IMG/VR virus record: IMGVR_UViG_3300036766_000317
Location: 27,825-91,824 of that record
Reading direction: 5' to 3' (one strand)
Source of the DNA: a virus
Length of the DNA: 64,000 nt
Shown here: positions 345 through 14,694 of the stretch, piece by piece
Position numbering within the stretch: the stretch's first letter is position 1
Layout of the letters: each line of letters starts with the position of its first letter
The notes under the pieces: generated by a model
Database searches by the model: none
Seen by the model: the letters and a program-made list of their open reading frames with translations, nothing else
What the model was told of the DNA's origin: nothing
Made by a program: the position numbers and the translations under genes

Positions 345-476
345 ATGGGTAAAGAAAAAGAAGTATGCTCTTGGTGCGGAAAAGAATTGCATGACAACGG
401 GGAAACCACATGGTGTGATTGTGGTTGGTGGGATGCTTTGCCCACAAGAGCCGAAGCCGAAGCCGAAACGAAGTAG
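345..476 (+). CDS. small zinc-ribbon protein (43 aa)
   Basis: MGKEKEVCSWCGKEL...WCDCGW; SD AAGGAGG. Confidence 0.7.
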   Translation: MGKEKEVCSWCGKELHDNGETTWCDCGWWDALPTRAEAEAETK

Positions 477-482
477 ACAATC

Positions 483-716
483 ATGAGGACACTGGAAATA
501 ATTCCAGTGTCCGAAGGGGCTGTCTACATCCCCAATTCAGAAGGGAAGGAAAGAGTTATGCAAATGTCCAATTTAGAATCAATCAAGATTCGTTGCCAAG
601 AACAAGGATTCTTTGCCCGAATACATCGGTTCAAGAAAGGCAAGAAGCGGATGTTTCGTAAGAAAGAACGGATAAATCGGCACATAACCAGGAAAGTTCT
701 TCATATTGAACAGTAG
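483..716 (+). CDS. hypothetical basic protein (start may be 558)
   Basis: ORF track; fits gene packing. Confidence 0.5.
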   Translation: MRTLEIIPVSEGAVYIPNSEGKERVMQMSNLESIKIRCQEQGFFARIHRFKKGKKRMFRKKERINRHITRKVLHIEQ

Positions 717-724
717 TTTGATGG

Positions 725-780
725 TAGCGGATTAGCCATGAGAAATCATGGCTTTTCCGCTGCAATTAAGCAGCGATTAA
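725..780 (+). ncRNA. two-hairpin intergenic motif, family B copy 1
   Basis: UAGCGGA-UU-AGCCAUGA(gaaa)UCAUGGCU-UU-UCCGCUG, overlapping second hairpin CGCUGC/GCAGCG, then AUUAA and SD. Confidence 0.7.
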
Positions 781-804: not shown

Positions 805-1434
805 ATGAGTAAAAAATCGAAGAAGGTTGCGGAGAAGAAGGCATTGACTCCGATTAAGAAGTTGACGCCGATTGCAAAGGCGGACGAGTCAATGAAAGCC
901 AAACAGACTGCGGCGATTGCGGAACTCAAGGCAAAATCGAAGGATGCTGCACCCATAGAGGCACCCGTCGTTGCAGCTCCTGTCCGTCCCGAAATGCCTG
1001 CTGACTTCTGTATGGAGAAAGCAGACTGGGACGGCGCTGGTGTGTGCTACGATGCAGGAAGTAATAACTGCGGAACGTGTACGAAGGATTTTCCTGAGAC
1101 CGTTGCCGTGTGCATCGAGCGCATGAAATTCCTCGGTGGTACTGTGAAAACGGCAAAGACGAAGAAAGCTGGAACAGCGAAGGCTCGGGTTGCCAAGAAT
1201 GGTGCGAAACCGCAATGCCTCGTCATTGATGATCTGTTGCGAGCATCAACGGCAATGGCAGACATGATCGCCTCGTTTGCTGCAATCGCATACGCTGGAG
1301 ATGCAAAAGCGGCAGAAGGTCGTATCAATCGGCACCTGAAATCCATTCGTGTCGGCGAGTACGTCAGATCGGCTGTAATGAAGGAATTCATTGCTTATCT
1401 GGCCGTTGCTGCGCCGGCAGCTCCCGCTGCTTAG
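805..1434 (+). CDS. Ala/Lys-rich protein with central Cys cluster, putative DNA binder
   Basis: ORF track; strong SD AAGGAGG; Lys/Ala-rich termini, C..CxxC. Confidence 0.75.
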   Translation: MSKKSKKVAEKKALTPIKKLTPIAKADESMKAKQTAAIAELKAKSKDAAPIEAPVVAAPVRPEMPADFCMEKADWDGAGVCYDAGSNNCGTCTKDFPETVAVCIERMKFLGGTVKTAKTKKAGTAKARVAKNGAKPQCLVIDDLLRASTAMADMIASFAAIAYAGDAKAAEGRINRHLKSIRVGEYVRSAVMKEFIAYLAVAAPAAPAA

Positions 1435-1442
1435 TGAGAAAT

Positions 1443-1506
1443 TGCAGAGGGCACGGGGTGAGAAAGTTTCATCCTGTGTAATGCACACTACCGTCCCAAG
1501 TCGGTG
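1443..1506 (+). ncRNA. twister ribozyme (permuted, P1 closed by loop), copy 1; predicted cut U1479/A1480
   Basis: UGCA-GAGGG-[CACGGGGUGAGA/UUUCAUCCUGUG]-UAA-UGCA..AC..[UACCG-UCCCAAGU-CGGUG]. Confidence 0.88.
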
Positions 1507-1530
1507 AGAAAATCTAAGAAAGGAGAGAGT

Positions 1531-1761
1531 ATGAAAAAGTATTTGGTAGAAGTCCGAAAGAAAGGTGAGAAATTCAGAGAACCTGGTGAACTGATTGAGA
1601 CAGTAAATACCATTCTCAAAGCGGAAGAAGTAGGAAATTTCAACCCGATCTTTTGCATCTACAAAGACAAACGTGTCATGGTAAGTTCTAAAGAAGGAGA
1701 TTTGAGTGATCCTTTTCGTCGGGAAACTTCATATCTGGAAAGTCTTTATATTGAAATCTAA
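1531..1761 (+). CDS. hypothetical protein
   Basis: ATG after AAGGAGAGAGT leader (start reassigned from 1504). Confidence 0.75.
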   Translation: MKKYLVEVRKKGEKFREPGELIETVNTILKAEEVGNFNPIFCIYKDKRVMVSSKEGDLSDPFRRETSYLESLYIEI

Positions 1762-1787
1762 CCACCAACCAAGAAAGGAGTATTGCA

Positions 1788-1955
1788 ATGAACAAACTTC
1801 AGAAATTGGTAGCACAATCGGTAATCGTCGTCCTGTACGGAAACCAGCTTCAAGATGAGAAGTTTGACCAAAGACAGTTACTTCTCGCCAAAGCAATGTA
1901 CGAGAAAGAAGTGGACAGACAGTTGAGAAAAGGGTTGGATCTTCGCAATATGTAG
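1788..1955 (+). CDS. hypothetical protein (55 aa)
   Basis: Manually translated MNKLQKLVAQSVIVVLYG...; SD AAGGAG. Confidence 0.7.
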   Translation: MNKLQKLVAQSVIVVLYGNQLQDEKFDQRQLLLAKAMYEKEVDRQLRKGLDLRNM

Positions 1956-1958
1956 TTT

Positions 1959-2010
1959 CAGCGTGGGAAGCAGAAATCTTCTGCTTCTCGCGGTGTACCT
2001 ACACCAATAA
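1959..2010 (+). ncRNA. family B motif copy 2
   Basis: CAGCGUGGGAAGCAGAA/UUCUGCUUCUCGCGGUG with G.G mismatch; hairpin GGUGU(accu)ACACC; AAUAA. Confidence 0.7.
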
Positions 2011-2029
2011 CTATGAGAAAGGAGAGAGT

Positions 2030-2398
2030 ATGGGAAATTCAATAAGATTGCACAAAGAGTTCGGTGTAAATCCGACAATCCTAAAATGCTTCCTCTGCGG
2101 AGAGGATAAAAATGAAATTGCTCTGTTGGGCGCTTCCTATAAAGGACAAGCCCCTATGCACATGTGCATAGACCAAACACCTTGTGACAAGTGTAAGGAA
2201 TACATGAAACAAGGTGTAATCCTAATCTCCGTGAGAGATGGGGAATCAGGAAGTGATCCTTATCGCACAGGGGGTTGGTGCGTTGTCAAAAGAGAAGCAA
2301 TGACCAACATCATTGATGATCCAAAATTGCTTGAGAAAGGAGCGATGTTTGTTCCTGATCCAGTATGGAAACAATTGGGTCTTCCAAAATTTGTATGA
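2030..2398 (+). CDS. hypothetical Cys-containing protein
   Basis: ORF track, CxxC...CxxC, strong SD. Confidence 0.75.
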   Translation: MGNSIRLHKEFGVNPTILKCFLCGEDKNEIALLGASYKGQAPMHMCIDQTPCDKCKEYMKQGVILISVRDGESGSDPYRTGGWCVVKREAMTNIIDDPKLLEKGAMFVPDPVWKQLGLPKFV

Positions 2399-2405
2399 TT
2401 AACCT

Positions 2406-2462
2406 CAGCTCAGACATGCCAAGAAATTGGTATGTCTGCTGGTGAGATCAATCACCAACTAA
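2406..2462 (+). ncRNA. family B motif copy 3
   Basis: CAGC-U-CAGACAUGCCAA(gaaa)UUGGUAUGUCUG-CU-GGUG; hairpin UGGUGA/UCACCA; ACUAA. Confidence 0.7.
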
Positions 2463-2485
2463 CTAAAGGAGGAAAGGAGAGTATT

Positions 2486-3253
2486 ATGACATCCAGCGTT
2501 CCAAAAGAAGAAATCATCTCGAAAATTATGAAGTTGCTGGCTCTGGGCAGTTCTGAAAAGAACGACAATCCTCATGAGCGGGAAACTGCTTCAAGGATGG
2601 CCGCAAAGCTCATGGCTGAGTGGAGCATCGACTTTGCAGAACTCAGAAGTTCCAAGCCATCAGAGGATGCTTTCGTCACTTATGAGGTGTCAGGTTCGGA
2701 AGACCGAAAAGTGGATTTTGAATCCTCCCTTGCTGGCAGTATTGCAAGGGCTTTCGATTGTAAGATCATCAACACCTGGACAAAATCATTGGATCATCGG
2801 TGGGTTATTGCTTTTGTCGGATCAAAGCATGATCTGGAAATCTCCGTCTATTTCTTCAAACATATTCGGAGAACGATGTATGCAATGTCCATTAAAAATG
2901 TGACCGTCGAAACAGTGAGGCCCAGAAACGGCAGACGAGCTGCCGGTACAGATGTAAATATGGCTCGGAGAAACTACTGCTTCGGTATGGTTGAGACGAT
3001 CAGCACCCGCATGGAAGACCTCTACAAAAAGCGGGAAGAGTTCATCCCGTCAGATTGCCGAGCCCTCGTCATTGTCAAGAAACAGGGATTGGAAAAATAT
3101 TTCAATCAGCAATATCCGAACAGAGTTTCTGGTAGAAGAACTTCTTTACGAGGAGATTTAACAGCATTCGGCAAGGGGCAGGAAGATGGAAAGCGTGTGA
3201 ACCTCAGTCGGCCCATTAGCAGTAATAATCAACAATCGGCCCAAATTGGATAA
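2486..3253 (+). CDS. DUF2786-domain protein
   Basis: N-terminal KIMKLLALG..NPHERETASRMAAKLMAEW typical of DUF2786; start reassigned after SD. Confidence 0.75.
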   Translation: MTSSVPKEEIISKIMKLLALGSSEKNDNPHERETASRMAAKLMAEWSIDFAELRSSKPSEDAFVTYEVSGSEDRKVDFESSLAGSIARAFDCKIINTWTKSLDHRWVIAFVGSKHDLEISVYFFKHIRRTMYAMSIKNVTVETVRPRNGRRAAGTDVNMARRNYCFGMVETISTRMEDLYKKREEFIPSDCRALVIVKKQGLEKYFNQQYPNRVSGRRTSLRGDLTAFGKGQEDGKRVNLSRPISSNNQQSAQIG

Positions 3254-3268
3254 AAGGAGGAAAGGAGC

Positions 3269-3412
3269 ATGAAGTCTTTCAACATTTATTTCAGGGACCT
3301 CAATGAAGATGCTCAAAAGAGGTTATTGGAACGGTTTGAAACAACTCCCGAAGAGGAAAATTGGGATACAGATGTGTTTCCAATAGCAATACTCGATCGG
3401 GAAGAGGAGTAA
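3269..3412 (+). CDS. small acidic protein (47 aa)
   Basis: MKSFNIYFRDLNEDAQKRLL...DREEE; SD AAGGAGGAAAGGAG. Confidence 0.75.
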   Translation: MKSFNIYFRDLNEDAQKRLLERFETTPEEENWDTDVFPIAILDREEE

Positions 3413-3414
3413 TT

Positions 3415-3510
3415 CCAGTTCGGAAATGGGAGCAATTCTGAGAGGTTGAGTGTTAAGCATTCGGTAGGAGTTGTTCCTGTTTCTTCTGGTGGAATTATCC
3501 ACCTTTACTA
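3415..3510 (+). ncRNA. family B motif copy 4 (expanded)
   Basis: 18-bp stem GGAAAUGGGAGCAAUUCU/GGAGUUGUUCCUGUUUCU with internal arm, basal CCAG/CUGG, then GGUGGA/UCCACC hairpin. Confidence 0.6.
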
Positions 3511-3529
3511 TAAGAAAAGGAGAAGAGAG

Positions 3530-3709
3530 ATGAAGAATGTTACTATGGAAACGAAAGGTCAGAATTTGGTTCTGACGGTCGATCTGTCAAAATCCTTTGG
3601 AGCCAGTGCTTCCGGGAAGACGATCATCATCGGAACGACTGAAGGCAATCAGCCCGTTGCCGGACATCCCGGTGTTAGTGTGGGGGTGAACGTCTACAAA
3701 AAGAAGTAG
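3530..3709 (+). CDS. conserved small hypothetical protein (SASGKTIIIGTTEGN type)
   Basis: MKNVTMETKGQNLVLTVDLSKSFGASASGKT...; resembles a widespread ~60 aa prokaryotic family; start reassigned. Confidence 0.8.
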   Translation: MKNVTMETKGQNLVLTVDLSKSFGASASGKTIIIGTTEGNQPVAGHPGVSVGVNVYKKK

Positions 3710-3765
3710 GCAGAGGGCTCCCGCTTCGGCGGGAGTAATGCACAATCTCGGTCCCAAGTCCGAGA
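3710..3765 (+). ncRNA. twister ribozyme copy 2; predicted cut U3736/A3737
   Basis: GCA-GAGGG-[CUCCCGC-UUCG-GCGGGAG]-UAA-UGC-AC-AA-[UCUCGG-UCCCAAGU-CCGAGA]. Confidence 0.9.
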
Positions 3766-3783
3766 AATTAGAAAGGAGAAAGT

Positions 3784-3987
3784 ATGGGATATGCAATGAT
3801 GGTAAGCGAATGTGGAGCATGTCACCAGATATTTTGCTACAATCCCCATCTGGTGCCCAGTCTAAACAATGTTCCTTTTTGTAAACGGTGTGTCGATGCT
3901 TCAGCACCTGAAAGAATCAAAAGGGGATTGGTTCCAATCAAATATTCAGAAGAAGCATACAAACCGATGGACGAATGTGAACTTTAA
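3784..3987 (+). CDS. small zinc-binding protein
   Basis: CGAC...CKRC; strong SD. Confidence 0.7.
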   Translation: MGYAMMVSECGACHQIFCYNPHLVPSLNNVPFCKRCVDASAPERIKRGLVPIKYSEEAYKPMDECEL

Positions 3988-4007
3988 ATTTGAAAGGAGA
4001 AATCTCT

Positions 4008-4133
4008 ATGAAACCGTTATACTGTACGCAAAACAAAGGCAAGTGCGAAACTTGCTCCCTTACCAACTATGGTCGGGATTGTCGGAATGTTCCGATAGCT
4101 ATAAATCGGAAAAAGGCAAAGCCTGAGAAGTAA
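4008..4133 (+). CDS. small Cys-rich protein (41 aa)
   Basis: MKPLYCTQNKGKCETCSLTNYGRDCRN; SD AAGGAG. Confidence 0.7.
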   Translation: MKPLYCTQNKGKCETCSLTNYGRDCRNVPIAINRKKAKPEK

Positions 4134-4138
4134 CTTTG

Positions 4139-4194
4139 GCAGAGGGCTCCGTCAGAACTGACGGAGTAATGCACAATTCCGGTCCCAAGTCCGG
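4139..4194 (+). ncRNA. twister ribozyme copy 3; predicted cut U4167/A4168
   Basis: GCA-GAGGG-[CUCCGUCA-gaac-UGACGGAG]-UAA-UGC-AC-AAUU-[CCGG-UCCCAAGU-CCGG]. Confidence 0.9.
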
Positions 4195-4227
4195 TTTGTA
4201 GCTAAAACAAAAGGAGGAAAGAGAGAT

Positions 4228-5139
4228 ATGAGTGAAACAATGGAAGGGTTGGCCTATGAGCTAACATCCGCAGAGCGGAAAGATGTTCGTGATCGTTATC
4301 CGAAGACCTACTTCCCAAGTCCGGTCTTAGAACCGGTGTGGGCAGGTCGTCGGGAACTCCGCAGAATTCCAGACAAGTTTGCCATTGTCGATCAATGTCG
4401 TCCAGGACCCTTAGACGCATCGAATCAGGTATTCGGGATCTGTTCGGATCAGTACAAAATCGTTCCCTTTGAAGACGTGGTGCATATGGTAGAAAATTCA
4501 GTCGGAAAATTGACTGAATACGGGAAGGTTCAAATCTGCCCGCACACCTATCTTGACGGAGCCAGATTAAACATTGGCATCAAATTTCCTGAGATGAAAC
4601 ATGAAATCAGGAAACTCGATTCCATTATTCCGAAAGTAGAGGTGTTTTCCTCTTATGACCTATCAACAAAGTTGATGGGTCGTTTCGGAGCATTCCAGCT
4701 TAAATGCCTGAATGGGGCGGGTATCTGGAAGTCCTTCAAGAGCTTTGCAAAAAGGCATCTCCAGAATCTGTTTCTGAATGAACTCGGAAACAACATCAGT
4801 GAAGGTATGGCTCTTTTCGGGGAACAGGTTGATTCGTGGAAAAAGTGGACTGAACTGAAGTTAGACCAGAAACTCTACGATACTGTTTGGGATGAACTCC
4901 CTTTCTCTGCTGCGGAACGTATCAAGATCGAAGCATTACCCGAAATCGGTACGAATCTTCAGTTGGGTCAAGCGATCAAAGGAAATTCCCTTGATCTTTG
5001 GAGCCTTTCATCGGTATTGACACAATTCGCTACCCATGGTGTCAAAAGCGAATTGCGCCGTATCGAACTGGAACCGGCAATCGCAAGAGTGATGGACCTC
5101 ACTTTCGACCGAGCCGCTGTTGCGGGACTCGTGCACTAA
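4228..5139 (+). CDS. DUF932/DUF945-like phage protein
   Basis: GICSDQYKIV, SYD, FQLKCLNG motifs typical of DUF932. Confidence 0.7.
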   Translation: MSETMEGLAYELTSAERKDVRDRYPKTYFPSPVLEPVWAGRRELRRIPDKFAIVDQCRPGPLDASNQVFGICSDQYKIVPFEDVVHMVENSVGKLTEYGKVQICPHTYLDGARLNIGIKFPEMKHEIRKLDSIIPKVEVFSSYDLSTKLMGRFGAFQLKCLNGAGIWKSFKSFAKRHLQNLFLNELGNNISEGMALFGEQVDSWKKWTELKLDQKLYDTVWDELPFSAAERIKIEALPEIGTNLQLGQAIKGNSLDLWSLSSVLTQFATHGVKSELRRIELEPAIARVMDLTFDRAAVAGLVH

Positions 5140-5172
5140 GAAACAACGAACTGAGCCAGAAAGGAGGTACTT

Positions 5173-5409
5173 GTGGAGAATGCTTCTATAAAAATGTTAA
5201 CCGTTGATGATTGTAATCTCCGAATGACTGAGCTAACAAAAGAGTTGGAAGAAGCAATTGAGAAATTGGGCCATTGTGAAGCTGTGGATTTGCTTGCGGC
5301 TAAGATTGCTGTTTGGGAAAGAGTCCGGCATCATTTGGTAAGAGGACAAATCATCACAATTGATGGGGAAGAAAAACTGAAGATGTGGGAAAACGTTTTA
5401 TCGGCATAA
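5173..5409 (+). CDS. hypothetical protein
   Basis: GTG start after AAGGAGG. Confidence 0.65.
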   Translation: MENASIKMLTVDDCNLRMTELTKELEEAIEKLGHCEAVDLLAAKIAVWERVRHHLVRGQIITIDGEEKLKMWENVLSA

Positions 5410-5411
5410 CC

Positions 5412-5474
5412 GCAGAGGGCGGACAGTCAGAAATTGGCTGTCCGTAATGCACTATCTGAGTCCCAAGTCTCAGA
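5412..5474 (+). ncRNA. twister ribozyme copy 4; predicted cut U5445/A5446
   Basis: GCA-GAGGG-[CGGACAGUCAG/UUGGCUGUCCG]-UAA-UGC-AC-UA-[UCUGAG-UCCCAAGU-CUCAGA]. Confidence 0.9.
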
Positions 5475-5497
5475 AATTCTATTAAAGGAGGAAAGGG

Positions 5498-5758
5498 ATG
5501 GAACCGATTCAAGACAATTTCTTCAAGAGGTTTCGGAAGAAGGTGGAAGGTATCTTCTACCGAACTCGCGGAAATAAAGGGACTGCCGATCTTGATCCGA
5601 TCATTCGGATCGGTCGTCACCATGGTGGGGGTGCTCGTCTTTCTGCTATTTCTTTTGGCGAAAAGAAAGCGTCTCCCACACTCCGAAAGTACCGACAGCA
5701 CAGAGATCGAGTAAACAAATTGGGAGCGATCTCCCGCAGGAAGAACCGCATTAATTAG
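5498..5758 (+). CDS. small basic protein
   Basis: ORF track; Arg/Lys rich; strong SD. Confidence 0.7.
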   Translation: MEPIQDNFFKRFRKKVEGIFYRTRGNKGTADLDPIIRIGRHHGGGARLSAISFGEKKASPTLRKYRQHRDRVNKLGAISRRKNRIN

Positions 5759-5817
5759 CAGAGGGCAGGGCCTATTGAGGCCCTGTAATGCTACATAGCC
5801 AGTCCCAAGTCTGGTTA
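5757..5817 (+). ncRNA. twister ribozyme copy 5; predicted cut U5786/A5787
   Basis: AGCA-GAGGG-[CAGGGCCU/AGGCCCUG]-UAA-UGCU-AC-A-[UAGCCAG-UCCCAAGU-CUGGUUA]; 4-bp P2 AGCA/UGCU. Confidence 0.92.
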
Positions 5818-5842
5818 AACTAAAGAGAAAGGAGAGAGTATT

Positions 5843-6106
5843 ATGATTACCAAAGAGGATGCTTTGAAGCTGAAATATCGGGATGAACTGCATTTCGGAG
5901 AATGTAGAAAGAAGGTCTCTCCCAGAGGCGGTGTAAAAATTACCAATACCATCGTCCGAGTAAACGGGAAAGTCAAAACGTGGAAACAGAATCTGAGTAG
6001 GTTTGAAGTTCCGATCAAACATGGACTATACGATCATAGTTATGTTGATGAGCGGAATGCTCATGATTTCCATCTCCCGAAAGACTGCCCGTTACTGAAG
6101 GAGTAA
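5843..6106 (+). CDS. hypothetical protein
   Basis: ORF track; RVNGKVKTWK motif; strong SD. Confidence 0.75.
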   Translation: MITKEDALKLKYRDELHFGECRKKVSPRGGVKITNTIVRVNGKVKTWKQNLSRFEVPIKHGLYDHSYVDERNAHDFHLPKDCPLLKE

Positions 6107-6110
6107 ATTT

Positions 6111-6344
6111 ATGCACCTACTTCATGAGACTACAGTCAAGAATACAGATGGAACTTATGAAATCACCGTCTACATCGTCGAAGATGGAAAACGAAGAGGT
6201 CCTTACACTTATCTGATTCCATCGGATAAAGAAGTCAGGGACTTCCTTGCTCTGTATCAAAAAGGAAAAAGAGATGGGTCAAGATTTCATGGGAAAGCCC
6301 TATCCCTTCTTAACAAACACCGAACCAGGTTAATCAGAAAATAG
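6111..6344 (+). CDS. hypothetical protein
   Basis: ORF track; SD AAGGAG. Confidence 0.7.
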   Translation: MHLLHETTVKNTDGTYEITVYIVEDGKRRGPYTYLIPSDKEVRDFLALYQKGKRDGSRFHGKALSLLNKHRTRLIRK

Positions 6345-6357
6345 GAGGAAAGAGAGC

Positions 6358-6639
6358 ATGAAAAAATCGCAGGTGGCATTGGCTAACATGATTCGTATAG
6401 CCAAAGCATACGGTAATACACATACGGTAGAGATGGAACAAGCTGAGAAAGCCCTTGCTGAACTTTTGACTGAAAAAGGTCATTCAGTAAGTGATTGGAA
6501 ATGTGTTCAATGTGATCAGGATCAGTGGGGGAAAGATGTAACCCTCTCGTCTGTCGCAGACGGAGGTGTTCCCATCTGTCCCTATTGCGAGAACGATATG
6601 ATCTTGGTTGAAGAAAGATGGGTGGAGGTGGAGCCATGA
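6358..6639 (+). CDS. zinc-ribbon protein
   Basis: CVQC...CPYC. Confidence 0.7.
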   Translation: MKKSQVALANMIRIAKAYGNTHTVEMEQAEKALAELLTEKGHSVSDWKCVQCDQDQWGKDVTLSSVADGGVPICPYCENDMILVEERWVEVEP

Positions 6640-6962
6640 AGAAGGAATACACCGATGTCAAACTCAAGATGACCCGTCGCAAGCTGATTGCCCTCGACAA
6701 AAAGGATATAGGGAAATGGACACATCAGGAATGTGTTGAGGCAGATCGGCTTATCCAAAACACAGCCATTCGGAATCTGAGGAAGAAATTATCCTTCTTC
6801 CAGGGAGGAACAGGAAGACTTGTTTCCAACTATGCCATACTGATGGCTCAGTTCCACTACGGATCGGCAGAAACAGACGACTTCCTTACAGCAATGGGCT
6901 GTTATGAGGATTGGATGTTCTCCGAGGAGCAGAACAAGAAACGGCATTCCAAAAAGTCTTAA
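6636..6962 (+). CDS. hypothetical protein
   Basis: ATGA overlap with upstream stop. Confidence 0.7.
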   Translation: MKKEYTDVKLKMTRRKLIALDKKDIGKWTHQECVEADRLIQNTAIRNLRKKLSFFQGGTGRLVSNYAILMAQFHYGSAETDDFLTAMGCYEDWMFSEEQNKKRHSKKS

Positions 6963-6965
6963 AGT

Positions 6966-7023
6966 CAGCAGATTGAGCGGGAACCATTTCCCGCTCTTTC
7001 TGGTGTTTTTAAGACACCAATAA
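6966..7023 (+). ncRNA. family B motif copy 5
   Basis: CAGCAGA-UU-GAGCGGGAA(ccau)UUCCCGCUC-UU-UCUGGUG; hairpin UGGUGUUU/AGACACCA; AUAA. Confidence 0.75.
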
Positions 7024-7043
7024 ACCAAAGGAGGAAAGAAAGT

Positions 7044-7526
7044 ATGAAGAAAACTTGTGATATTTGCAAGACCTATTGGAGAGTTCGGAATGAAAAGAAG
7101 ACCGAACATCCGTGCCATCCCTATCAGAACCCGATGGAAAAAGTCTGTCAGGATTTTGAGATGGAATGGACTCAAGAAGCCTGTCTAAGAAAATATCCGA
7201 GAGTGGTGGCCCATCTGATCTGTGCCAGTCTCGGCTATTTTACACCTCAATCAGCAGCAAATGCCATTTCGTTTTACAAACACGGAAAGGCGTTTTTCTG
7301 CGAGTGGTATTCCCATATGACCAAATATTCTCGGGATAACTACAAGGGTGACTATTTTGATGAAGTCATCTGTAAACGGGTTGGGGAAGAAACTCTGAGA
7401 TTGGCATTTGTAGGTCGTCATTCCCATCATGGCTATATGACCGAGATTAAGCAAGCCCGACATCTTGTGGCCGCAGAATTGAAAACTTCGGGAGCTACAT
7501 CGGGAATGCTTGCATCTTGGTTTTAG
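7044..7526 (+). CDS. hypothetical protein
   Basis: ORF track; strong SD. Confidence 0.75.
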   Translation: MKKTCDICKTYWRVRNEKKTEHPCHPYQNPMEKVCQDFEMEWTQEACLRKYPRVVAHLICASLGYFTPQSAANAISFYKHGKAFFCEWYSHMTKYSRDNYKGDYFDEVICKRVGEETLRLAFVGRHSHHGYMTEIKQARHLVAAELKTSGATSGMLASWF

Positions 7527-7534
7527 GCTGAATA

Positions 7535-7590
7535 TAGCGGGTTGGGCAGGAAGCGTCCTGCTCTTCCTGGTGCATTCAGTACCAAATAAA
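7535..7590 (+). ncRNA. family B motif copy 6
   Basis: UAGCGGG-UU-GGGCAGGA(agcg)UCCUGCUC-UU-CCUGGUG; hairpin UGGUGC/GUACCA; AAUAAA. Confidence 0.75.
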
Positions 7591-7607
7591 GAGAGAAAGG
7601 AGAGGGT

Positions 7608-7937
7608 ATGAAAACAGTAGATATTATGGAACGTCTGAAAATTCCAGAATGGAAGGCGAAGGTTGTCAATGTGCTTACCAAAGAACACGCCTCATCCCAT
7701 TCCGATGTTGACGACATCCTCGGAATTATTGAAACCCTTCTTGAAGGGTACGGGGTAGAACCACTCAGGGGAGATCATGTTGATAATTACTATATGGATA
7801 TCAACATCCTCTACATTAATTTGGGGGACACATACACACCCACCGTTCTGTATGATACACTCCTAAACAGATTCTTTATCTGTTCGTGGGGTGATTATAT
7901 TGAATCCAAACCGAAACGATTTCCGATGAATGCTTGA
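7608..7937 (+). CDS. hypothetical phage protein (YINLGDTYTPT motif)
   Basis: ORF track; strong SD. Confidence 0.75.
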   Translation: MKTVDIMERLKIPEWKAKVVNVLTKEHASSHSDVDDILGIIETLLEGYGVEPLRGDHVDNYYMDINILYINLGDTYTPTVLYDTLLNRFFICSWGDYIESKPKRFPMNA

Positions 7938-7940
7938 GAA

Positions 7941-7994
7941 TAGCAGATTGGACGGGAATTTCCCGTCCTTTCTGGTGTGCTTAAACACCAATAA
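7941..7994 (+). ncRNA. family B motif copy 7
   Basis: UAGCAGA-UU-GGACGGGA(auu)UCCCGUCC-UU-UCUGGUG; hairpin UGGUGU/ACACCA; AUAA. Confidence 0.75.
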
Positions 7995-8010
7995 AAAGAA
8001 AGGAGAGGGT

Positions 8011-8355
8011 ATGGACAGAAAAATGTCGAGTGATCTGGATAACTACATTACCGGACATTACGGGGAAGATCAGTTCAAAAGACCTCGGAAAAAAGATAAA
8101 AAGGGGAAGGAATCATTGGTCCATGAATTAGAACACCAGATGAAGAACCTTAACGTCAGTCAGATGTTGGAATTAGTCAAGAGATCGGGAAATACGGAAA
8201 AACGCAGATTCCGATTAAAAGGCCCTACGGGCAGTTTAGATGGAACTATCCATGATGCCGATTTCGGTATCTTGACTATTGACGAAGTACCAGAGTTCTT
8301 TCTGGCAAAAGATTTCTTGTTGGCCAATGACGTAGTTTGGGAACTCATTAACTAA
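8011..8355 (+). CDS. hypothetical protein
   Basis: Start reassigned to ATG after AAGGAGAGGGT. Confidence 0.7.
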   Translation: MDRKMSSDLDNYITGHYGEDQFKRPRKKDKKGKESLVHELEHQMKNLNVSQMLELVKRSGNTEKRRFRLKGPTGSLDGTIHDADFGILTIDEVPEFFLAKDFLLANDVVWELIN

Positions 8356-8374
8356 ACAGAGAAAGGAGATTAGC

Positions 8375-8596
8375 ATGGAAGAGCCAATCAAAATTCCAGA
8401 GAAGGACAAATTTGTCCGAAATTGTCCGGGTCCCAGATATAAAGTAATTTCAGGTCCTGGAGGGCATTACGTCTATGATTACAAGTCTCTGGACGTGGTG
8501 AGGAAAGACGGGAAATTCTTTATGGGCAAAGAACCGTCGGAAGCCAGAGAGTTCCTTCAATCTCTAAATGAAGAAGCTCCCCTTATAGAAAGGTAA
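8375..8596 (+). CDS. hypothetical protein
   Basis: ORF track; SD AAGGAG. Confidence 0.7.
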   Translation: MEEPIKIPEKDKFVRNCPGPRYKVISGPGGHYVYDYKSLDVVRKDGKFFMGKEPSEAREFLQSLNEEAPLIER

Positions 8597-8608
8597 GGAT
8601 GGTAATCT

Positions 8609-8746
8609 ATGAAATGTGACCACTGCAATATCGAATTGAAAAAACGCAAGACCCCTCCAAGAACCGCGACAATTGACGGGGGAAAGTATTATGACTATTT
8701 TCAATGCCCAAAATGCAAAACGAATTATGCCAAAGCCAAAAAGTAG
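8609..8746 (+). CDS. small zinc-ribbon protein (45 aa)
   Basis: MKCDHCNIEL...FQCPKCK; stop abuts twister copy 6. Confidence 0.7.
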   Translation: MKCDHCNIELKKRKTPPRTATIDGGKYYDYFQCPKCKTNYAKAKK

Positions 8747-8799
8747 CAGAGGACGCTGCTTCGGCAGCGTAATGCACAAATCCAGTCCCAAGTCTGGAT
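8746..8799 (+). ncRNA. twister ribozyme copy 6; predicted cut U8770/A8771
   Basis: GCA-GAGGA-[CGCUGC-UUCG-GCAGCG]-UAA-UGC-AC-AA-[AUCCAG-UCCCAAGU-CUGGAU]. Confidence 0.88.
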
Positions 8800-8824
8800 A
8801 AAATAAGAAAAGGAGGAAAGAGCT

Positions 8825-9052
8825 ATGCCAAAAAACGTAAGAAATTTCTGGATCGAAGCAGATGTCGATGGGGGAACTCCCATCGGAGCAGGCCCTAAAT
8901 CCAAAGATGGAGGATTTTCTCTGTCCATCTTCATGCGAGACAAAGGATTCGTCAAGAGGGTCGCCAACATCTCAGGAGTCGGGGGAAGTGAATTGAAATT
9001 ATCAATTCATACGGAAGATGGTAAATATTTACAGTATACTACACAAAGGTAA
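8825..9052 (+). CDS. hypothetical protein
   Basis: ORF track; strong SD. Confidence 0.75.
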   Translation: MPKNVRNFWIEADVDGGTPIGAGPKSKDGGFSLSIFMRDKGFVKRVANISGVGGSELKLSIHTEDGKYLQYTTQR

Positions 9053-9076
9053 CAGATGAAAAAGGAGGAAAGAGCT

Positions 9077-9280
9077 ATGCCAATCGAAACAGATTTCACC
9101 AATTTGCTCAAGCATATCGATGATGCTTCTGATGGATTGGAACAAAAGGTCGAATCGACGGAAGAGGAGTTGGACACTTTGAATACTCTCCTTACGAGAA
9201 AAAAAGAGCTTGTCGATAAAATCAACTCCCTCGCCGAAGAGATTGAGGACTTCCTCAACGACGCCAATTCCCTCATCTGA
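9077..9280 (+). CDS. small acidic coiled-coil protein
   Basis: Start after AAGGAGGAAAGAGCT; about 18 D/E vs 6 K/R in 67 aa. Confidence 0.75.
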   Translation: MPIETDFTNLLKHIDDASDGLEQKVESTEEELDTLNTLLTRKKELVDKINSLAEEIEDFLNDANSLI

Positions 9281-9281
9281 A

Positions 9282-9337
9282 TGCAGAGGACAGCCTCAAC
9301 AGAGGCTGTAATGGACATCTCGGTTCCAAGTCCGAGA
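9282..9337 (+). ncRNA. twister ribozyme copy 7 (variant, G.G mismatch in P2); predicted cut U9309/A9310
   Basis: UGCA-GAGGA-[CAGCCUC/GAGGCUG]-UAA-UGG-AC-A-[UCUCGG-UUCCAAGU-CCGAGA]. Confidence 0.75.
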
Positions 9338-9362
9338 AATAAATTAAAGGAGGGAAGAGAGT

Positions 9363-9596
9363 ATGCACAAAAGACCCACACCAAATCAAGAGAGGTCTTT
9401 CCGTCACTTCTTCGGAAAATCTACCAGTGTTTACTGGAATCCTTTATTTGGATTTGATATCGTTCAATTTGATGCCGACATGCAGTCCGAACAAGGATAC
9501 GTTGAGGATGGAAAAACAAGCCTTCGGGAATTTCTCGTCCAGAAATTCGGTCAAGAGGCTTCGGATCTAGTAAACTCTTTAATAGGAGGTGTTTAA
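9363..9596 (+). CDS. hypothetical protein
   Basis: ORF track; strong SD. Confidence 0.7.
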   Translation: MHKRPTPNQERSFRHFFGKSTSVYWNPLFGFDIVQFDADMQSEQGYVEDGKTSLREFLVQKFGQEASDLVNSLIGGV

Positions 9597-10263: not shown

Positions 10264-10292
10264 TTGACATATCAATATGTTTTTGATATACT
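10264..10292 (+). promoter_or_regulatory. sigma70-type promoter at start of replication region
   Basis: TTGACA-17 bp-TATACT with TG extension. Confidence 0.8.
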
Positions 10293-11683: not shown

Positions 11684-13207
11684 ATGCTGAAAGAAAAGAT
11701 GAGAAATTCTAAGGAGGGTGGGAAGTTGAGAGGCTTAATCAGAAAAACTGGACCGCATGCTGGAATTTCTGAGAAAGAAATCCAACAATCCCCACCCTCC
11801 GACTATGTTATCCAATATCTCGATCCAGTCGAAAGTTGGATGAATCAGAAACTTTATGATCTCGTCATAAAAGACCTTTCTTTTCCTGCTCAATACTATC
11901 GACAAGGCCCTTTCCATAAAATCAGAAAAGATTATGAGCGTAAGGATACAATCATTGCAAAAGCAAAAACTGGTGAATATATTTTCTACACAGGACTTAT
12001 TCCAAGAATACAAGAACTCTGCAAAGCTAAAGGTGTGGAATTAACCCTCTGTTCGGAGGAAGAAGAGCCTATTAAATTGAGTACGAAACCTATGCCTGAT
12101 AGTCTGAAACTTCGTCCGTTTCAAACAGACTTCATCAAACAAGCTATTCTCAAGAAAAGAGGGGTACTGATTGCTCCTACAGGAACTGGGAAAACCATAT
12201 TAGGAATAGGATTAATTGCATCATTATATGAACACTACAAAATTCTTTGGTTGTGCCATACTAAATCTTTAATGAGCCAATCGGCTAAAGAATTTGAGAA
12301 AGTATTTGGTAAAGGAAGTGTCGGCCTTGTTGGGGATTCCAACTTCGATGTGGGAAAATATGTTACTGTAGCCACTAGACAGACCTTCGTAAAGCACACA
12401 AAAGAATTGGCAAATGTATTTGACGCTGTGGTTGTCGATGAAGCACACCACATTTCTTCATTGGTTTATGCGAAAGAGAATGGGCTAATTAAATTAGGAC
12501 AATACTTCGATATATTAAAAGAATTGTATTGTCCTGTCAGAATAGGCTTGACAGCTACAAGGGCTGATAGTAAAGGAGCCCAATTAGCTATGGAAGCCTT
12601 GCTCGGTCCTGTTATCGGGGAATTTACGATCAATGAAGCACGAGAGCAGGGTTATATGGCACATCCGGTTATCAAATTAACGAAGTTATCCAAGAATATG
12701 GTTACCCACGACATGAGAAATTATGCAGATGTTTACGAGTCTGGGGTAGTCCGTAATCTAGAGATGAATCGGATCATTTCTGAATTAGTTAAAGGATATG
12801 CGGATGAAGGATTGACTTCTCTGGTAATCGTAACCCAGATCGTTCATGGAGAATTAATTCTTGGTATGGTGAAACGTCTCGGCGTAGGAGCCGTCTTTAT
12901 AAATGGTTCCACTGAAACAGAATCCAGAGAATTAACTAAACACGCCCTTAATGGCAAAATCCTGAAATGTGTTATTTGTACGGCTGTTTGGAAGGAAGGG
13001 GTCAACATCCCAGAGTTAAATGTGCTGATTAATGCAGCAGGGGGCAAATCTGAATTGGCGACGATTCAAGCGATCGGTAGGGGCATGAGGAAAACAGAGA
13101 CTAAATCTCATTTAGTTATCCATGACTTCTTCAACCCCAGTCACCGATTCTTGATAGATCATTTTGGATCTCGCCTGTGTTTGTATTTTGATTTAGGATG
13201 GATGTAA
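11684..13207 (+). CDS. superfamily 2 DExH helicase (UvsW-like); start may be TTG 11726
   Basis: LRPFQ, APTGTGKT, VVVDEAHH, GLTAT, EGVNIP, QAIGRGMR. Confidence 0.92.
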   Translation: MLKEKMRNSKEGGKLRGLIRKTGPHAGISEKEIQQSPPSDYVIQYLDPVESWMNQKLYDLVIKDLSFPAQYYRQGPFHKIRKDYERKDTIIAKAKTGEYIFYTGLIPRIQELCKAKGVELTLCSEEEEPIKLSTKPMPDSLKLRPFQTDFIKQAILKKRGVLIAPTGTGKTILGIGLIASLYEHYKILWLCHTKSLMSQSAKEFEKVFGKGSVGLVGDSNFDVGKYVTVATRQTFVKHTKELANVFDAVVVDEAHHISSLVYAKENGLIKLGQYFDILKELYCPVRIGLTATRADSKGAQLAMEALLGPVIGEFTINEAREQGYMAHPVIKLTKLSKNMVTHDMRNYADVYESGVVRNLEMNRIISELVKGYADEGLTSLVIVTQIVHGELILGMVKRLGVGAVFINGSTETESRELTKHALNGKILKCVICTAVWKEGVNIPELNVLINAAGGKSELATIQAIGRGMRKTETKSHLVIHDFFNPSHRFLIDHFGSRLCLYFDLGWM

Positions 13208-13212
13208 AATAA

Positions 13213-13306
13213 GGGCTGGTAGGATCAGCCAGCCCGTCTGAGTGGTGACAACCATTTTACTCCTTATTGGGAACTCACCACTCAGACTTTATTTTTTTAA
13301 GGAATA
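13213..13306 (+). promoter_or_regulatory. tandem hairpins with U-tract (terminator/attenuator) before primase; loop holds anti-SD
   Basis: GGGCUGG/CCAGCCC; 13-bp GUCUGAGUGGUGA/UCACCACUCAGAC + UUUAUUUUUUU. Confidence 0.6.
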
Positions 13307-13309
13307 TCA

Positions 13310-14191
13310 ATGAATGTTGAATCCTTCGACATCTTAGCCTATCTACAATCGAGAAACATACCATATAAAACATCGGGCAAGAATGTATCCCAAGGTTGGG
13401 TAGGCGTAAATTGTATATACTGCATAGATGGAAGTAACCACTTAGGAATTAATCTCCAATCAAAAACCTTCTCCTGCTTCAAATGCTCTGAAACAGGTAA
13501 TGCTGTGAAATTAGTATGCAGTATTGATGGGGTGTCCGTCCATTCCGCTTTAGATATAATTTCTGAGTATTCAGGCGGAACATACATTCCCAAAGAGAAG
13601 AAGTTTCAGACAAAAACAACCCTCCCAATTGGAGCATCAAAGAAGTTCCCAAAATCCCATTTGGATTTCCTCATTAAAAGACGTTATACTGAAGAAGTGA
13701 TCAAAACCTATGATTTATATGCAACCGGTCCTGTTGGTATCTACAACCACAGAATCATCATCCCTGTGTTTGTGAATCACAGAATGGTTGCATTTGTGGG
13801 AAGAGATGTTACAGGAAATTCTGATAAACCATATTGGAACTCTTCTGATAAATATGGTACAAAGGATGTCAAGCAGACCCTTTATAATATGGATAATGTT
13901 ATTGGCAATACCGTAATTATTGTAGAGGGCATTCTTGATGCTTGGCGAATAGGAGATGGGGCTGTCTGTACGTTTGGAACGAAACACACCCGTGAACAAC
14001 TTCGTTTGTTGAAAGGAATGCACCGAGTGTTTGTCATGTATGACGCCGATGCTGTACCAATTGCTCATAAATTAGCTTACGACTTGTCATCTTTCTGCAA
14101 AGATGTTGTGGTGCTTGAATTGTCAGAAGGCGATCCTGATGAAATGAAGGATGATGATGTCAGAGCTTTACGAAAGGAGATAGGAATATAA
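13310..14191 (+). CDS. DNA primase (Zn finger + TOPRIM)
   Basis: CIYC..H..CFKC; RIIIP; IVEGILDA; MYDADA; DPDE. Confidence 0.9.
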   Translation: MNVESFDILAYLQSRNIPYKTSGKNVSQGWVGVNCIYCIDGSNHLGINLQSKTFSCFKCSETGNAVKLVCSIDGVSVHSALDIISEYSGGTYIPKEKKFQTKTTLPIGASKKFPKSHLDFLIKRRYTEEVIKTYDLYATGPVGIYNHRIIIPVFVNHRMVAFVGRDVTGNSDKPYWNSSDKYGTKDVKQTLYNMDNVIGNTVIIVEGILDAWRIGDGAVCTFGTKHTREQLRLLKGMHRVFVMYDADAVPIAHKLAYDLSSFCKDVVVLELSEGDPDEMKDDDVRALRKEIGI

Positions 14192-14254
14192 TTTTGTTGT
14201 AAGAAATTTGCTAATTAAGATATTTCCGATACTTATTTAGGTTTTTAATTTTAC

Positions 14255-14285
14255 TTGACAAATCAAATCTGCTGTTATATATAAT
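14255..14285 (+). promoter_or_regulatory. probable sigma70-type promoter
   Basis: TTGACA followed by TATATAAT (17-19 bp spacing) in AT-rich spacer. Confidence 0.6.
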
Positions 14286-14319
14286 ACCAAAATGAACTAA
14301 ATTCAAAGGAGAAATAATT

Positions 14320-14694
14320 ATGGATTATAAAACAGAAGTTCTAAACCTAATGATGGAACAACCTGCTTTTATTATACACAAAAAATTGCTCTGTGCATTA
14401 GGATCAAACCCGTCTTATTTTATAGCCTATCTGATGGATAAATTTTTTAGAGAAGCACCTACTTCTGATGGTTATGTAACAGCCTCTATAGAAGAAGTGG
14501 AAAAGGAAATTTGCATCAAAAGAGGAAGACAAGACTCATCCATAAGAATTCTCAAAAAGAACAAATACATAATAATGAAACCTAAAGAGGGCTCCAGAAA
14601 ACGACAATTCAAATTACTCTTTCCGAATTTTGACCCTGATAATTCTTATCGTACAGTCGTCAAAAACAAAATGGGTGGGGAGAATAGACCATGA
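14320..14694 (+). CDS. winged-helix protein, paralog of the initiator N-terminus
   Basis: HKKLL..GSNPSYF..DGY..SIEEVEKE..QDSSIRIL parallels 14691 ORF. Confidence 0.6.
   Translation: MDYKTEVLNLMMEQPAFIIHKKLLCALGSNPSYFIAYLMDKFFREAPTSDGYVTASIEEVEKEICIKRGRQDSSIRILKKNKYIIMKPKEGSRKRQFKLLFPNFDPDNSYRTVVKNKMGGENRP

Follow-up and report, generated by a model that had tools for sequence, protein, structure and literature searches.

The DNA analysed here is a 64,000-nucleotide stretch (the window) of a 91.8-kb virus genome recorded from an uncultured sediment phage. Rfam cmscan of the whole window returned seven full-length matches to the Twister-P5 model (RF02684), all on the + strand and each spanning model positions 1-58 of 58, namely copy 1 at 1443..1505 (45.3 bits), copy 2 at 3709..3763 (55.9 bits), copy 3 at 4138..4194 (59.1 bits), copy 4 at 5411..5472 (42.9 bits), copy 5 at 5757..5814 (64.4 bits, the highest of the seven), copy 6 at 8745..8797 (48.7 bits) and copy 7 at 9282..9335 (41.7 bits, the weakest). 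The initial annotation had listed exactly these seven sense-strand copies from the letters alone and had proposed a comparison with Rfam covariance models, in which all seven (41.7-64.4 bits) scored above the Twister-P5 gathering score of 37.6 bits. Parsing of each copy placed the predicted cleavage at U1479^A1480, U3736^A3737, U4167^A4168, U5445^A5446, U5786^A5787, U8770^A8771 and U9309^A9310, at the very uridines named beforehand. A degenerate core pattern matched the window seven times against 0.00 matches expected from 100 shuffles; a permissive Rfam scan of the whole window (E<=1) gave no additional ribozyme family, and the rest of the 91.8-kb genome held no Twister-P5 match beyond the seven.

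By sequence, all seven elements belong to the permuted P5-type twisters, a member of Rfam clan CL00120 within the class described by Roth et al. 2014 (reviewed in PMC5408937). As in other twisters of this type, the 3' strand of P2 is followed by GAGGG of L1, a closed P1 hairpin, U^AA, the 5' strand of P2, L2 and P4/L4, and the phage copies have the conserved core as well as both pseudoknots. All seven fit a circular permutation in which P1 is closed by a loop and the ends of the molecule fall at P5. Unlike P5-helix-bearing twisters, the phage copies form no P5 helix from their flanks and their ends are open at this position, P5 being an optional stem in twisters (PMC5408937).

The fold is supported by pairing across the seven-copy alignment, in which 96.2% of the cells of the twister structure, both pseudoknots included, were paired, as compared with 77.3% in shuffled controls (0/500 shuffles matched the observed value) and 25-44% when the partners were slid. 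Ten pairs showed changes on both sides. P1 was 100% paired with 4/5 pairs changing on both sides, P4 was 92.9% paired with 5/6 pairs doing so, and P2, which measures 3 bp in most copies and 4 bp in copy 5, was 95.2% paired and near-invariant. The P1 hairpins comprise seven distinct sequences of 6-12 bp. The earlier observation of differing stems with pairing kept holds for P1 and P4 alike, as does the report of two cUUCGg loops, which were found in P1 of copy 2 (3710) and also in copy 6 (8746). The scissile U^A, the guanine of L1 and the AAG of L4 occur in 7/7 copies; GAGGG had been proposed to carry the catalytic G, and its conserved L1 guanine is indeed present throughout, the catalytic residue being presumably the first G of GAGGG, a choice taken from the O. 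sativa twister structure. The T2 pseudoknot is AC/GU in 7/7 copies, as first noted, and departs from the GC/GC consensus by compensated changes. The T1 pseudoknot had been described as CC/GG; the pseudoknot itself stands, but not the count of two pairs, since the G-run and the CCC of L4 form three, in agreement with the three Watson-Crick pairs between L1 and L4 known for twisters (PMC5408937). T1 is GGG/CCC in five copies and a compensated GGA/UCC (A-U) in copy 7. Copy 6 carries an A.C mismatch in T1 (GGA vs CCC) and copy 7 a G.G mismatch in P2 (UGG in place of UGC), and both copies may on this account be slow or inactive.

These features were also found in a comparison set of 111 unique twisters drawn from this genome and related IMG/VR phage contigs, many of which carry arrays of 6-15 twisters, with all copies within each array contig on one strand only. 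T1 is fully paired in 107/111 by eight triplet combinations (GGG/CCC 68, GGA/UCC 24, AGG/CCU 6, GAG/CUC 3, UGG/CCA 3 and three singletons), copy 6 (GGA/CCC) being one of the four exceptions, and the retention of pairing through so many combinations shows selection on the active fold. T2 covaries as well (AC/GU 72, GC/GC 10, CC/GG 9), so AC/GU is the majority form in phage arrays (72/111), in contrast with the GC/GC consensus of the type-P5 twister. The UAA cleavage triplet is present in 69/69 Rfam-called array copies and the GA of L1 in 68/69.

The position of the ribozymes relative to genes is equally regular. In the window, each module consists of a stop codon, a ribozyme starting -1 to 9 nt later and a P4 end lying 18-33 nt before the next start, which bears out the placement at or just past the stop and ahead of the next start given in the initial annotation. 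Copy 1 follows a gene for a 209-aa protein (805-1434) and precedes a start at 1531; copy 2 abuts a stop codon at 3707-3709; copy 3 precedes a DUF932-like gene (4228-5139); copy 4 follows the gene at 5173-5409; in copy 5 P2 begins with the G of a UAG stop, and copy 6 likewise shares the G of a UAG stop. All seven copies fall within 8 kb of the same strand, and 1-4 genes separate one predicted processing site from the next. In the related arrays, 69/73 twisters start -1 to 41 nt past an ORF stop (median 1 nt), 23 of the 73 share the G of UAG, and 72/73 sit 16-53 nt upstream of a Shine-Dalgarno sequence (SD) and start. Specific junctions are retained between phages: a twister lies 3' of the orthologue of the 209-aa gene in 4/4 related phages, and twisters both precede the DUF932-like gene and follow its neighbour in 2/2 phages, including L121, even though the proteins flanked by such orthologous junctions are only 31-47% identical. 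Most of the genes lying between twisters are orphans that lack a homologue in relatives, and conserved anchor genes enclose differing numbers of genes from phage to phage.

Every spacer longer than 40 nt ahead of a strong promoter at 10264 (15/15) holds either a twister (seven) or a long hairpin (eight). The eight companion hairpins, all on the + strand, are irregular duplexes of 20-24 bp interrupted by a 2x2 internal loop, and their z scores range from -4.3 to -9.0: B1 at 470..530 (MFE -32.4 kcal/mol, z -5.1; 0/200 shuffles as stable), B2 at 713..774 (~23 bp with a 2x2 internal loop; -36.3 kcal/mol, z -7.7), B3 at 1951..2003 (-30.2 kcal/mol, z -7.4), B4 at 2396..2454, before a DUF2786/DUF7168 gene at 2486-3253 (-27.8 kcal/mol, z -5.5), B5 at 3406..3500, after the same gene and one small gene (-41.4 kcal/mol, z -5.1), B6 at 6956..7015 (~24 bp, with a stop codon in the outer stem; -36.1 kcal/mol, z -9.0), B7 at 7527..7580 (~21 bp, with the stem/loop spacing of B6 and B8; -31.4 kcal/mol, z -4.3) and B8 at 7931..7987 (~20 bp; -28.8 kcal/mol, z -5.4). 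None matched Rfam in the window scan at E<=1, nor did B6 at E<2. By synteny, the slots of B4 and B5 carry twisters in the relatives L121 and L018, and at these two orthologous junctions a predicted hairpin takes the place of the twister. Judged by their form, the companion hairpins are probably sites for host RNase III; the phage encodes no RNase III gene of its own.

The strong sigma-70-type promoter at 10264..10292 on the + strand (TTGACA, 17 nt, TATACT, with TG; 11/12 match (L250 13589-13617)) lies downstream of the ribozyme stretch and ahead of the replication genes. The sole other 11/12 promoter on this strand is situated ~2 kb upstream of the window start, and no convincing terminator was found between the two on the ribozyme strand. 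The sequence occurs only in DNA sediment metagenome runs and in no RNA run.

The best-supported reading of this arrangement is a protein-free cutting of early polycistronic RNA by the twisters, and this role gains support from the strict order of stop codon, ribozyme and SD together with its conservation at orthologous junctions. A single long early RNA would start at the strong promoter ~2 kb before the window, and the ribozyme-bearing stretch would be completed ahead of the next strong promoter at 10264. Once P4/L4 of a given copy has been transcribed, the RNA is predicted to fold into P2, P1, P4 and the pseudoknots T1 and T2 and to cut itself between the U after P1 and the A of UAAUG. Cleavage would leave the upstream message ending in a stable P1 hairpin (-10 to -15 kcal/mol) bearing a 2',3'-cyclic phosphate, and the downstream message would begin with a 5'-OH and 9-11 free nt followed by the P4 hairpin, with its ribosome-binding site, a strong SD within the 18-33 nt, freed of upstream context. 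It is likely that these are functional type-P5 twisters and that, together with the eight hairpins as probable host RNase III sites, they partition the early operon into blocks of 1-4 genes, each translated and degraded independently of the others. From the sequence features we infer that the RNA is cut in vivo and that this affects message stability and translation. The initial annotation regarded both new ends as protected: this agrees with the 3' P1 hairpin of the upstream product but not with a hairpin-capped 5' end, because 9-11 unpaired nt precede P4, and any protection of the downstream product would come from the 5'-OH rather than from a terminal hairpin. What a 5'-OH does to a message depends on the host: in E. 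coli such an end shields RNA from 5'-end-dependent RNase E, whereas in B. subtilis RNase J1 degrades the glmS ribozyme product that carries one.

This dependence on the host underlies another explanation, in which the ribozymes serve timed destruction: if the host has RNase J, early messages would be marked by their 5'-OH for rapid 5'-to-3' decay, and early expression would be a short burst that shuts itself off, a parallel being the glmS ribozyme/RNase J1 pathway. The restriction of the array to the early small-gene region, stopping before the replication genes with their own promoter, and the 9-11 unpaired nt without a terminal hairpin at the start of the downstream product would both suit such a role. 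However, the twisters lack a ligand domain, so that cleavage would be constitutive, and the 3' P1 hairpin and the interchange with hairpin elements are better suited to processing, which makes timed destruction unlikely. The folded RNAs might also work uncut, by insulating adjacent cistrons structurally or by providing stand-by sites for ribosomes between them, given that stable folds lie directly ahead of every SD and that equivalent slots hold hairpins without a known catalytic core. A purely structural spacer could dispense with having both pseudoknots, and the nucleotides needed for catalysis only (the scissile UAA, GA of L1 and AAG of L4) are essentially invariant over 69 copies; a purely structural function is accordingly extremely improbable.

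The twisters could instead act mainly as boundaries of mobile gene cassettes, each gene travelling with its ribozyme and SD module and the common core favouring recombination between phages, with cleavage itself of little benefit. The prevalence of orphan genes between twisters and the differing gene counts between conserved anchors would agree with such exchange. Yet the stretches shared between copies, at 8-10 nt, are too short for homologous recombination, the same junctions are kept beside orthologous genes at 31-47% identity, and the compensatory changes that keep both pseudoknots indicate selection on the catalytic fold and not on DNA sequence, so this explanation appears very unlikely. 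The preferred reading, that of RNA processing, has a possible extension. Since 5'-OH and 2',3'-cyclic phosphate form the pair of ends joined by an RtcB-type ligase, the blocks bracketed by twisters (3737-4167, 4168-5445, 5446-5786 and 8771-9309) could be circularised by such a host enzyme into circular mRNAs, which is considered highly improbable. If it were true, these mRNAs would be exonuclease-proof, each with its own SD, and whether an early gene is circular and long-lived or linear would be decided by the combination of twisters and RNase III-type hairpins.

The initial annotation held that no characterised system of this kind existed, which overstates the novelty: clustered prophage hammerheads were published in 2011 together with evidence that they cleave (PMC3088659), a role of twisters in processing polycistronic RNA has already been suggested (PMC6765202), and the arrays are common in IMG/VR. 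In the polycistronic RNAs of prophages, Perreault et al. 2011 reported hammerhead clusters on either side of genes, with three arrays cleaving in vitro and one also in E. coli (PMC3088659). The phage array, with seven coding-strand copies and strong promoters only at both ends, fits this type; in both cases several ribozymes on one strand lie either side of individual phage genes or of short runs of them, and the proposal is the same, namely that long phage transcripts are processed to gene- or operon-length mRNAs. The ribozyme class differs (hammerhead versus twister), as does the scale, with two or three ribozymes per cluster in the earlier work as opposed to seven in 8 kb here and up to 15 in relatives, and neither the strict stop-ribozyme-SD module nor the mixing with a hairpin family was described there (PMC3088659). 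The element itself is thus known, and the phage array is a clean, large case of an arrangement proposed since 2011. As the roles of self-cleaving ribozymes in bacteria and phages are 'largely elusive' according to reviews (PMC6765202), this phage and its relatives provide a dense natural test case with seven or eight ribozymes per operon. The built-in comparison of ribozymes with hairpins could reveal what a protein-free cut gains over an RNase III site, possibly independence of the host, a change in end chemistry or altered message lifetimes.

The T7 early transcript carries five RNase III sites between early genes, formed by irregular hairpins with internal loops, and cleavage leaves a 3' hairpin on the upstream mRNA; the duplex in sites of this kind is irregular and measures ~20 bp or more. 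The phage array shares with T7 the cutting of early polycistronic RNA between cistrons and the 3' hairpin on the upstream product, and its companion hairpins (20-24 bp, 2x2 internal loop) resemble the T7 sites in form, whereas the twisters are protein-free and generate 2',3'-cyclic phosphate and 5'-OH ends in place of the 3'-OH and 5'-phosphate of RNase III. Synthetic insulators of the RiboJ type combine a self-cleaving ribozyme, a hairpin and then a ribosome-binding site, and strip upstream context for independent expression. The stop-ribozyme-SD modules may offer compact natural parts of this kind, RiboJ-type insulators being engineered hammerhead-type parts whereas the phage array is built from natural twisters.

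The window covers positions 27,825-91,824, the right-hand 64 kb, of a virus record of 91,824 bp that came from a sediment metagenome and is rated 100% complete by CheckV. The whole of this window was searched with Rfam 15 cmscan. Exactly seven matches exceeded the gathering score of any family, and all seven were full-length Twister-P5 (RF02684) matches on the + strand, with scores of 41.7-64.4 bits against a gathering cut-off of 37.6 bits. They lie at 1443-1505, 3709-3763, 4138-4194, 5411-5472, 5757-5814, 8745-8797 and 9282-9335, with the scissile U at U1479, U3736, U4167, U5445, U5786, U8770 and U9309, respectively. The initial annotation, made from the sequence alone, had proposed seven copies with this consensus at these positions; the covariance model bore out copy number, coordinates and consensus, and in the parsed copies the predicted U^A sites proved exact. 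Rfam reported no further Twister-P5 match in the rest of the 91,824-bp genome, and no other ribozyme class at gathering score or E≤1 in the window or in the arrays of relatives. A degenerate twister-core pattern matched seven times in the window versus 0.00 expected from 100 dinucleotide-preserving shuffles.

Each copy consists of the 3' strand of P2 (GCA), L1 (GAGGG or GAGGA), P1 as a closed hairpin, and U^AA, followed by the 5' strand of P2 (UGC), an L2 starting with AC, and P4 with L4 (UCCCAAGU), an element order that is the P5 permutation of twister. P5, an optional stem of twister (PMC5408937), is absent from all seven copies. As initially noted, the P1 stems differ yet pair: each copy carries a distinct hairpin of 6-12 bp (-9.7 to -15.4 kcal/mol), two of them closed by a C-UUCG-G loop, and P4 (4-7 bp) likewise varies in sequence. 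Twister T1 comprises three Watson-Crick pairs and T2 two (reviewed in PMC5408937). Five copies in the window have GGG/CCC as T1; the seventh (9282-9335) has GGA/UCC, which is compensated, and the sixth (8745-8797) GGA/CCC with one A.C. T2 is AC/GU in 7/7 copies, as had been read initially; relative to the GC/GC of the Rfam consensus this is a compensated variant. The seventh copy, which has a G.G mismatch in P2, scores lowest.

Across the seven copies, 96.2% of the cells of the twister structure, both pseudoknots included, are paired, compared with 77.3% in a shuffle control (0/500 as high as observed) and 25-44% when partners were slid, and ten pairs show changes on both sides. A parser that imposed no base at the three positions of T1 or at those of T2 was applied to this genome and the IMG/VR phage contigs, giving 111 unique twister candidates among the matches listed. 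T1 was fully paired in 107 of these, in eight triplet combinations: GGG/CCC (68), GGA/UCC (24), AGG/CCU (6), GAG/CUC (3), UGG/CCA (3), and GCA/UGC, UAG/CUA and CGG/CCG once each; the sixth copy of the window is among the four candidates with an imperfect T1. For T2, AC/GU was found 72 times, GC/GC 10, CC/GG 9 and GC/GU 5 times among the 111. The cleavage-site UAA was present in 69/69, and the L1 GA in 68/69, Rfam-called array copies among the matches listed. Selection for an active ribozyme would be expected to leave just this combination, compensatory change in both pseudoknots and invariant catalytic nucleotides, which a mere spacer would not show.

The ribozymes are set in a run of about 40 small genes, mostly orphan, with strong AAGGAGG-type ribosome-binding sites. 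Pfam signal among the early proteins is restricted to the products of 2486-3253 (DUF2786/DUF7168) and 4228-5139, the latter a weak DUF932 match below the Pfam cut-off; both genes are kept in relatives and directly adjoin processing elements. Helicase and DnaG-like primase genes follow from 11.7 kb onward. Only two + strand sites match sigma-70 promoters at 11/12 positions and have the TG of an extended -10; one is at 10264-10292 and the other some 2 kb upstream of the window. No convincing intrinsic terminator was found between them, from which the reading of the region as an early polycistronic transcript is a reasonable one. Past the early region, the + strand has no convincing intrinsic terminator until 13205-13312, where the helicase gene is followed by two strong hairpins, the second with a run of 7 T behind it; another promoter-like site (TTGACA ... 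TATATAAT) is present in the spacer at 14189-14322. Up to 10250, all 15 spacers longer than 40 nt are filled, seven by a twister and eight by a long hairpin, every other junction measuring ≤33 nt, and the units between these sites hold 1-4 genes each. The placement initially described, at a stop codon and before the next start, was confirmed: the window twisters start -1 to 9 nt past the stop, the G of a UAG being the first base of P2 in two copies, and the end of P4 is 18-33 nt from the next start. In a positional survey of 73 twisters from contigs with ≥4 copies, among the matches listed, an ORF stop lay -1 to 41 nt upstream in 69/73 (median 1 nt; the G of UAG common to 23) and an SD and start 16-53 nt downstream in 72/73 (median 28). 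This spacing, in the window and in the surveyed arrays, shows that the ribozyme belongs to a junction module that is both compact and conserved.

The eight spacers without a twister (+ strand; 470-530, 713-774, 1951-2003, 2396-2454, 3406-3500, 6956-7015, 7527-7580 and 7931-7987; B1-B8, respectively) were folded together with a few upstream nucleotides. In 8/8 the minimum-energy structure is a single long irregular hairpin of 20-24 bp, with z-scores of -4.3 to -9.0 and 0/200 shuffles folding as well. Several share a plan: the outer stem leads through two single mismatches to a stem of 4 bp and then, past a 2x2 internal loop, to an apical stem of 8-9 bp. These companion hairpins are positional equivalents of the twisters. 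The early transcript of T7 carries RNase III processing sites, which the hairpins resemble in size and irregular form, and they are probably RNase III-type sites; no phage-encoded RNase III was found, so that a host enzyme would be needed to cut them. They may instead represent a new, undescribed ribozyme. Rfam gave no match to them better than E=2.3. Intrinsic termination was rejected as a family trait, since a weak U-run follows the apical stem in only 2-3 of them and the conserved 3' piece is CUGGUG rather than a U tract. The hairpins often end in CUGGUG, a loop and then CACCAAUAA, so that an alternative small hairpin is possible, and, speculatively, this short conserved tail (GGUG, loop, CACCAAUAA) might form a small hairpin at the new 5' end once the RNA is cut. 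Four non-twister spacers in an unrelated twister-array phage contig (L105:235-333, 1105-1225, 1624-1715 and 2451-2540) have the same two-state architecture, in which the 3' strand of a long hairpin can alternatively pair with a downstream copy of the 5' flank, followed by ACUAAAG and an SD; their sequence is quite different from that of the window hairpins, which suggests a recurrent design.

Relatives were traced by scanning IMG/VR with the twister core pattern, which gave at least 118 matching stretches, rather than through single early proteins: the 303-aa early protein returned no close relative, and a helicase search one distant contig at 36% identity. Several IMG/VR contigs among the matches listed carry arrays, including, by Rfam, a complete 82.9-kb phage with 15 Twister matches (12 above cut-off), a complete 69.5-kb phage with nine, and contig fragments with 6-13; all copies of any one array contig among the matches listed are on the same strand. 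Variants were seen in relatives (L127:5982-6090 and 7598-7705, L094:9578-9756, L018:7229-7321), some with an extra hairpin (P3) within L2, one with a P1 of >100 nt and one with T1 GAG/CUC. Some of these score close to or under the Rfam cut-off, so arrays are larger than Rfam counts indicate. The phage contigs L121 (overlapping L081), L018 and L094 encode orthologues of four early proteins, at 31-54% identity. By gene and Rfam mapping, the 209-aa gene (805-1434) has an orthologue directly followed by a twister in 4/4 phages, and twisters occur upstream of the DUF932-like gene and after its downstream neighbor in both phages having these genes. The junctions before and after the DUF2786 gene hold twisters in L121 and L018 and the hairpins at 2396-2454 and 3406-3500 here. 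Ribozymes have thus been kept at specific junctions despite deep divergence of the flanking proteins.

Genomes and MAGs from very many phyla, among them those of the archaea Thermosphaera, Desulfurococcales and Methanosarcina, also contain the core pattern, as a single copy per 8-kb stretch (loci L130-L209). With no array among the 80 genome and MAG stretches listed, dense arrays appear to be characteristic of phage contigs. Inference of a host from these cellular matches was rejected because single copies are spread over so many phyla, archaea included. No cultured relative was found, the helicase being <30% identical to that of every phage in INPHARED, which leaves no isolate for testing.

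A divergent twister may precede the window by about 430-490 nt (genome 27336-27395; L250:2837-2896), within a 196-nt spacer before the gene at genome position 27435. It would comprise P2 GUCA/UGAC, L1 GAAGG with L4 UCCUAAGU, a compensated T1 AGG/CCU, a P1 of 3 bp capped by a GAAA loop, and a 5-bp helix of the flanks (GGUAG/CUACC) as a would-be true P5 stem. The pairing-based parser accepted it and its helices are present in the MFE fold; as Rfam gave no report even at E≤10, this eighth twister is a candidate only.

Processing of the early RNA by the twisters is the interpretation best supported by these sequence patterns. The RNA would be cut co-transcriptionally at each U^A, leaving the P1 hairpin and a 2',3'-cyclic phosphate at the 3' end of the upstream piece; being structured and lacking a 3'-OH, this end should withstand 3' exonucleases as well as decay assisted by polyadenylation. 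The downstream piece would begin with a 5'-OH and 9-11 unpaired nt, then P4 and the SD. The initial description of both new ends as protected is therefore only partly apt at the 5' side: P4 is not terminal, and any protection there would come from the 5'-OH, with a host-dependent effect. A 5'-OH protects against 5'-monophosphate-dependent RNase E, and in the glmS case it marks the RNA for RNase J1. P2 directly adjoins the stop codon, so that P2, L1 and some of P1 would lie beneath a ribosome terminating there, and folding of the ribozyme would have to precede the ribosome's arrival or await its departure. No phage-encoded RtcB or RNA ligase was found, and the sequence of window 1400-9400 is recorded in DNA runs only, from sediment metagenomes.

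The seven elements are members of a curated family, and their arrangement has published precedent. Among the open-access papers covered, none was found that describes twister arrays of such density, or their alternation with hairpin sites. The array is valuable mainly as a well-defined natural test system, and the specific feature of most use is the exchange of twister for hairpin at orthologous junctions. An association of twister and hammerhead ribozymes with phage genes, and of the two with one another, is described in PMC4604425; according to a 2019 review, polycistronic processing by both has been suggested and is still to be defined (PMC6765202). The initial annotation knew of no characterised system of this sort, and the implied lack of precedent is not supported, given the hammerhead arrays published in 2011 (Perreault et al. 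2011, PMC3088659): multiple hammerheads border individual genes or short gene blocks of prophages, cleavage was shown for three such arrays in vitro and for one in E. coli, circular or spliced products were sought and none found, and long phage transcripts were proposed to be processed into gene-length mRNAs.
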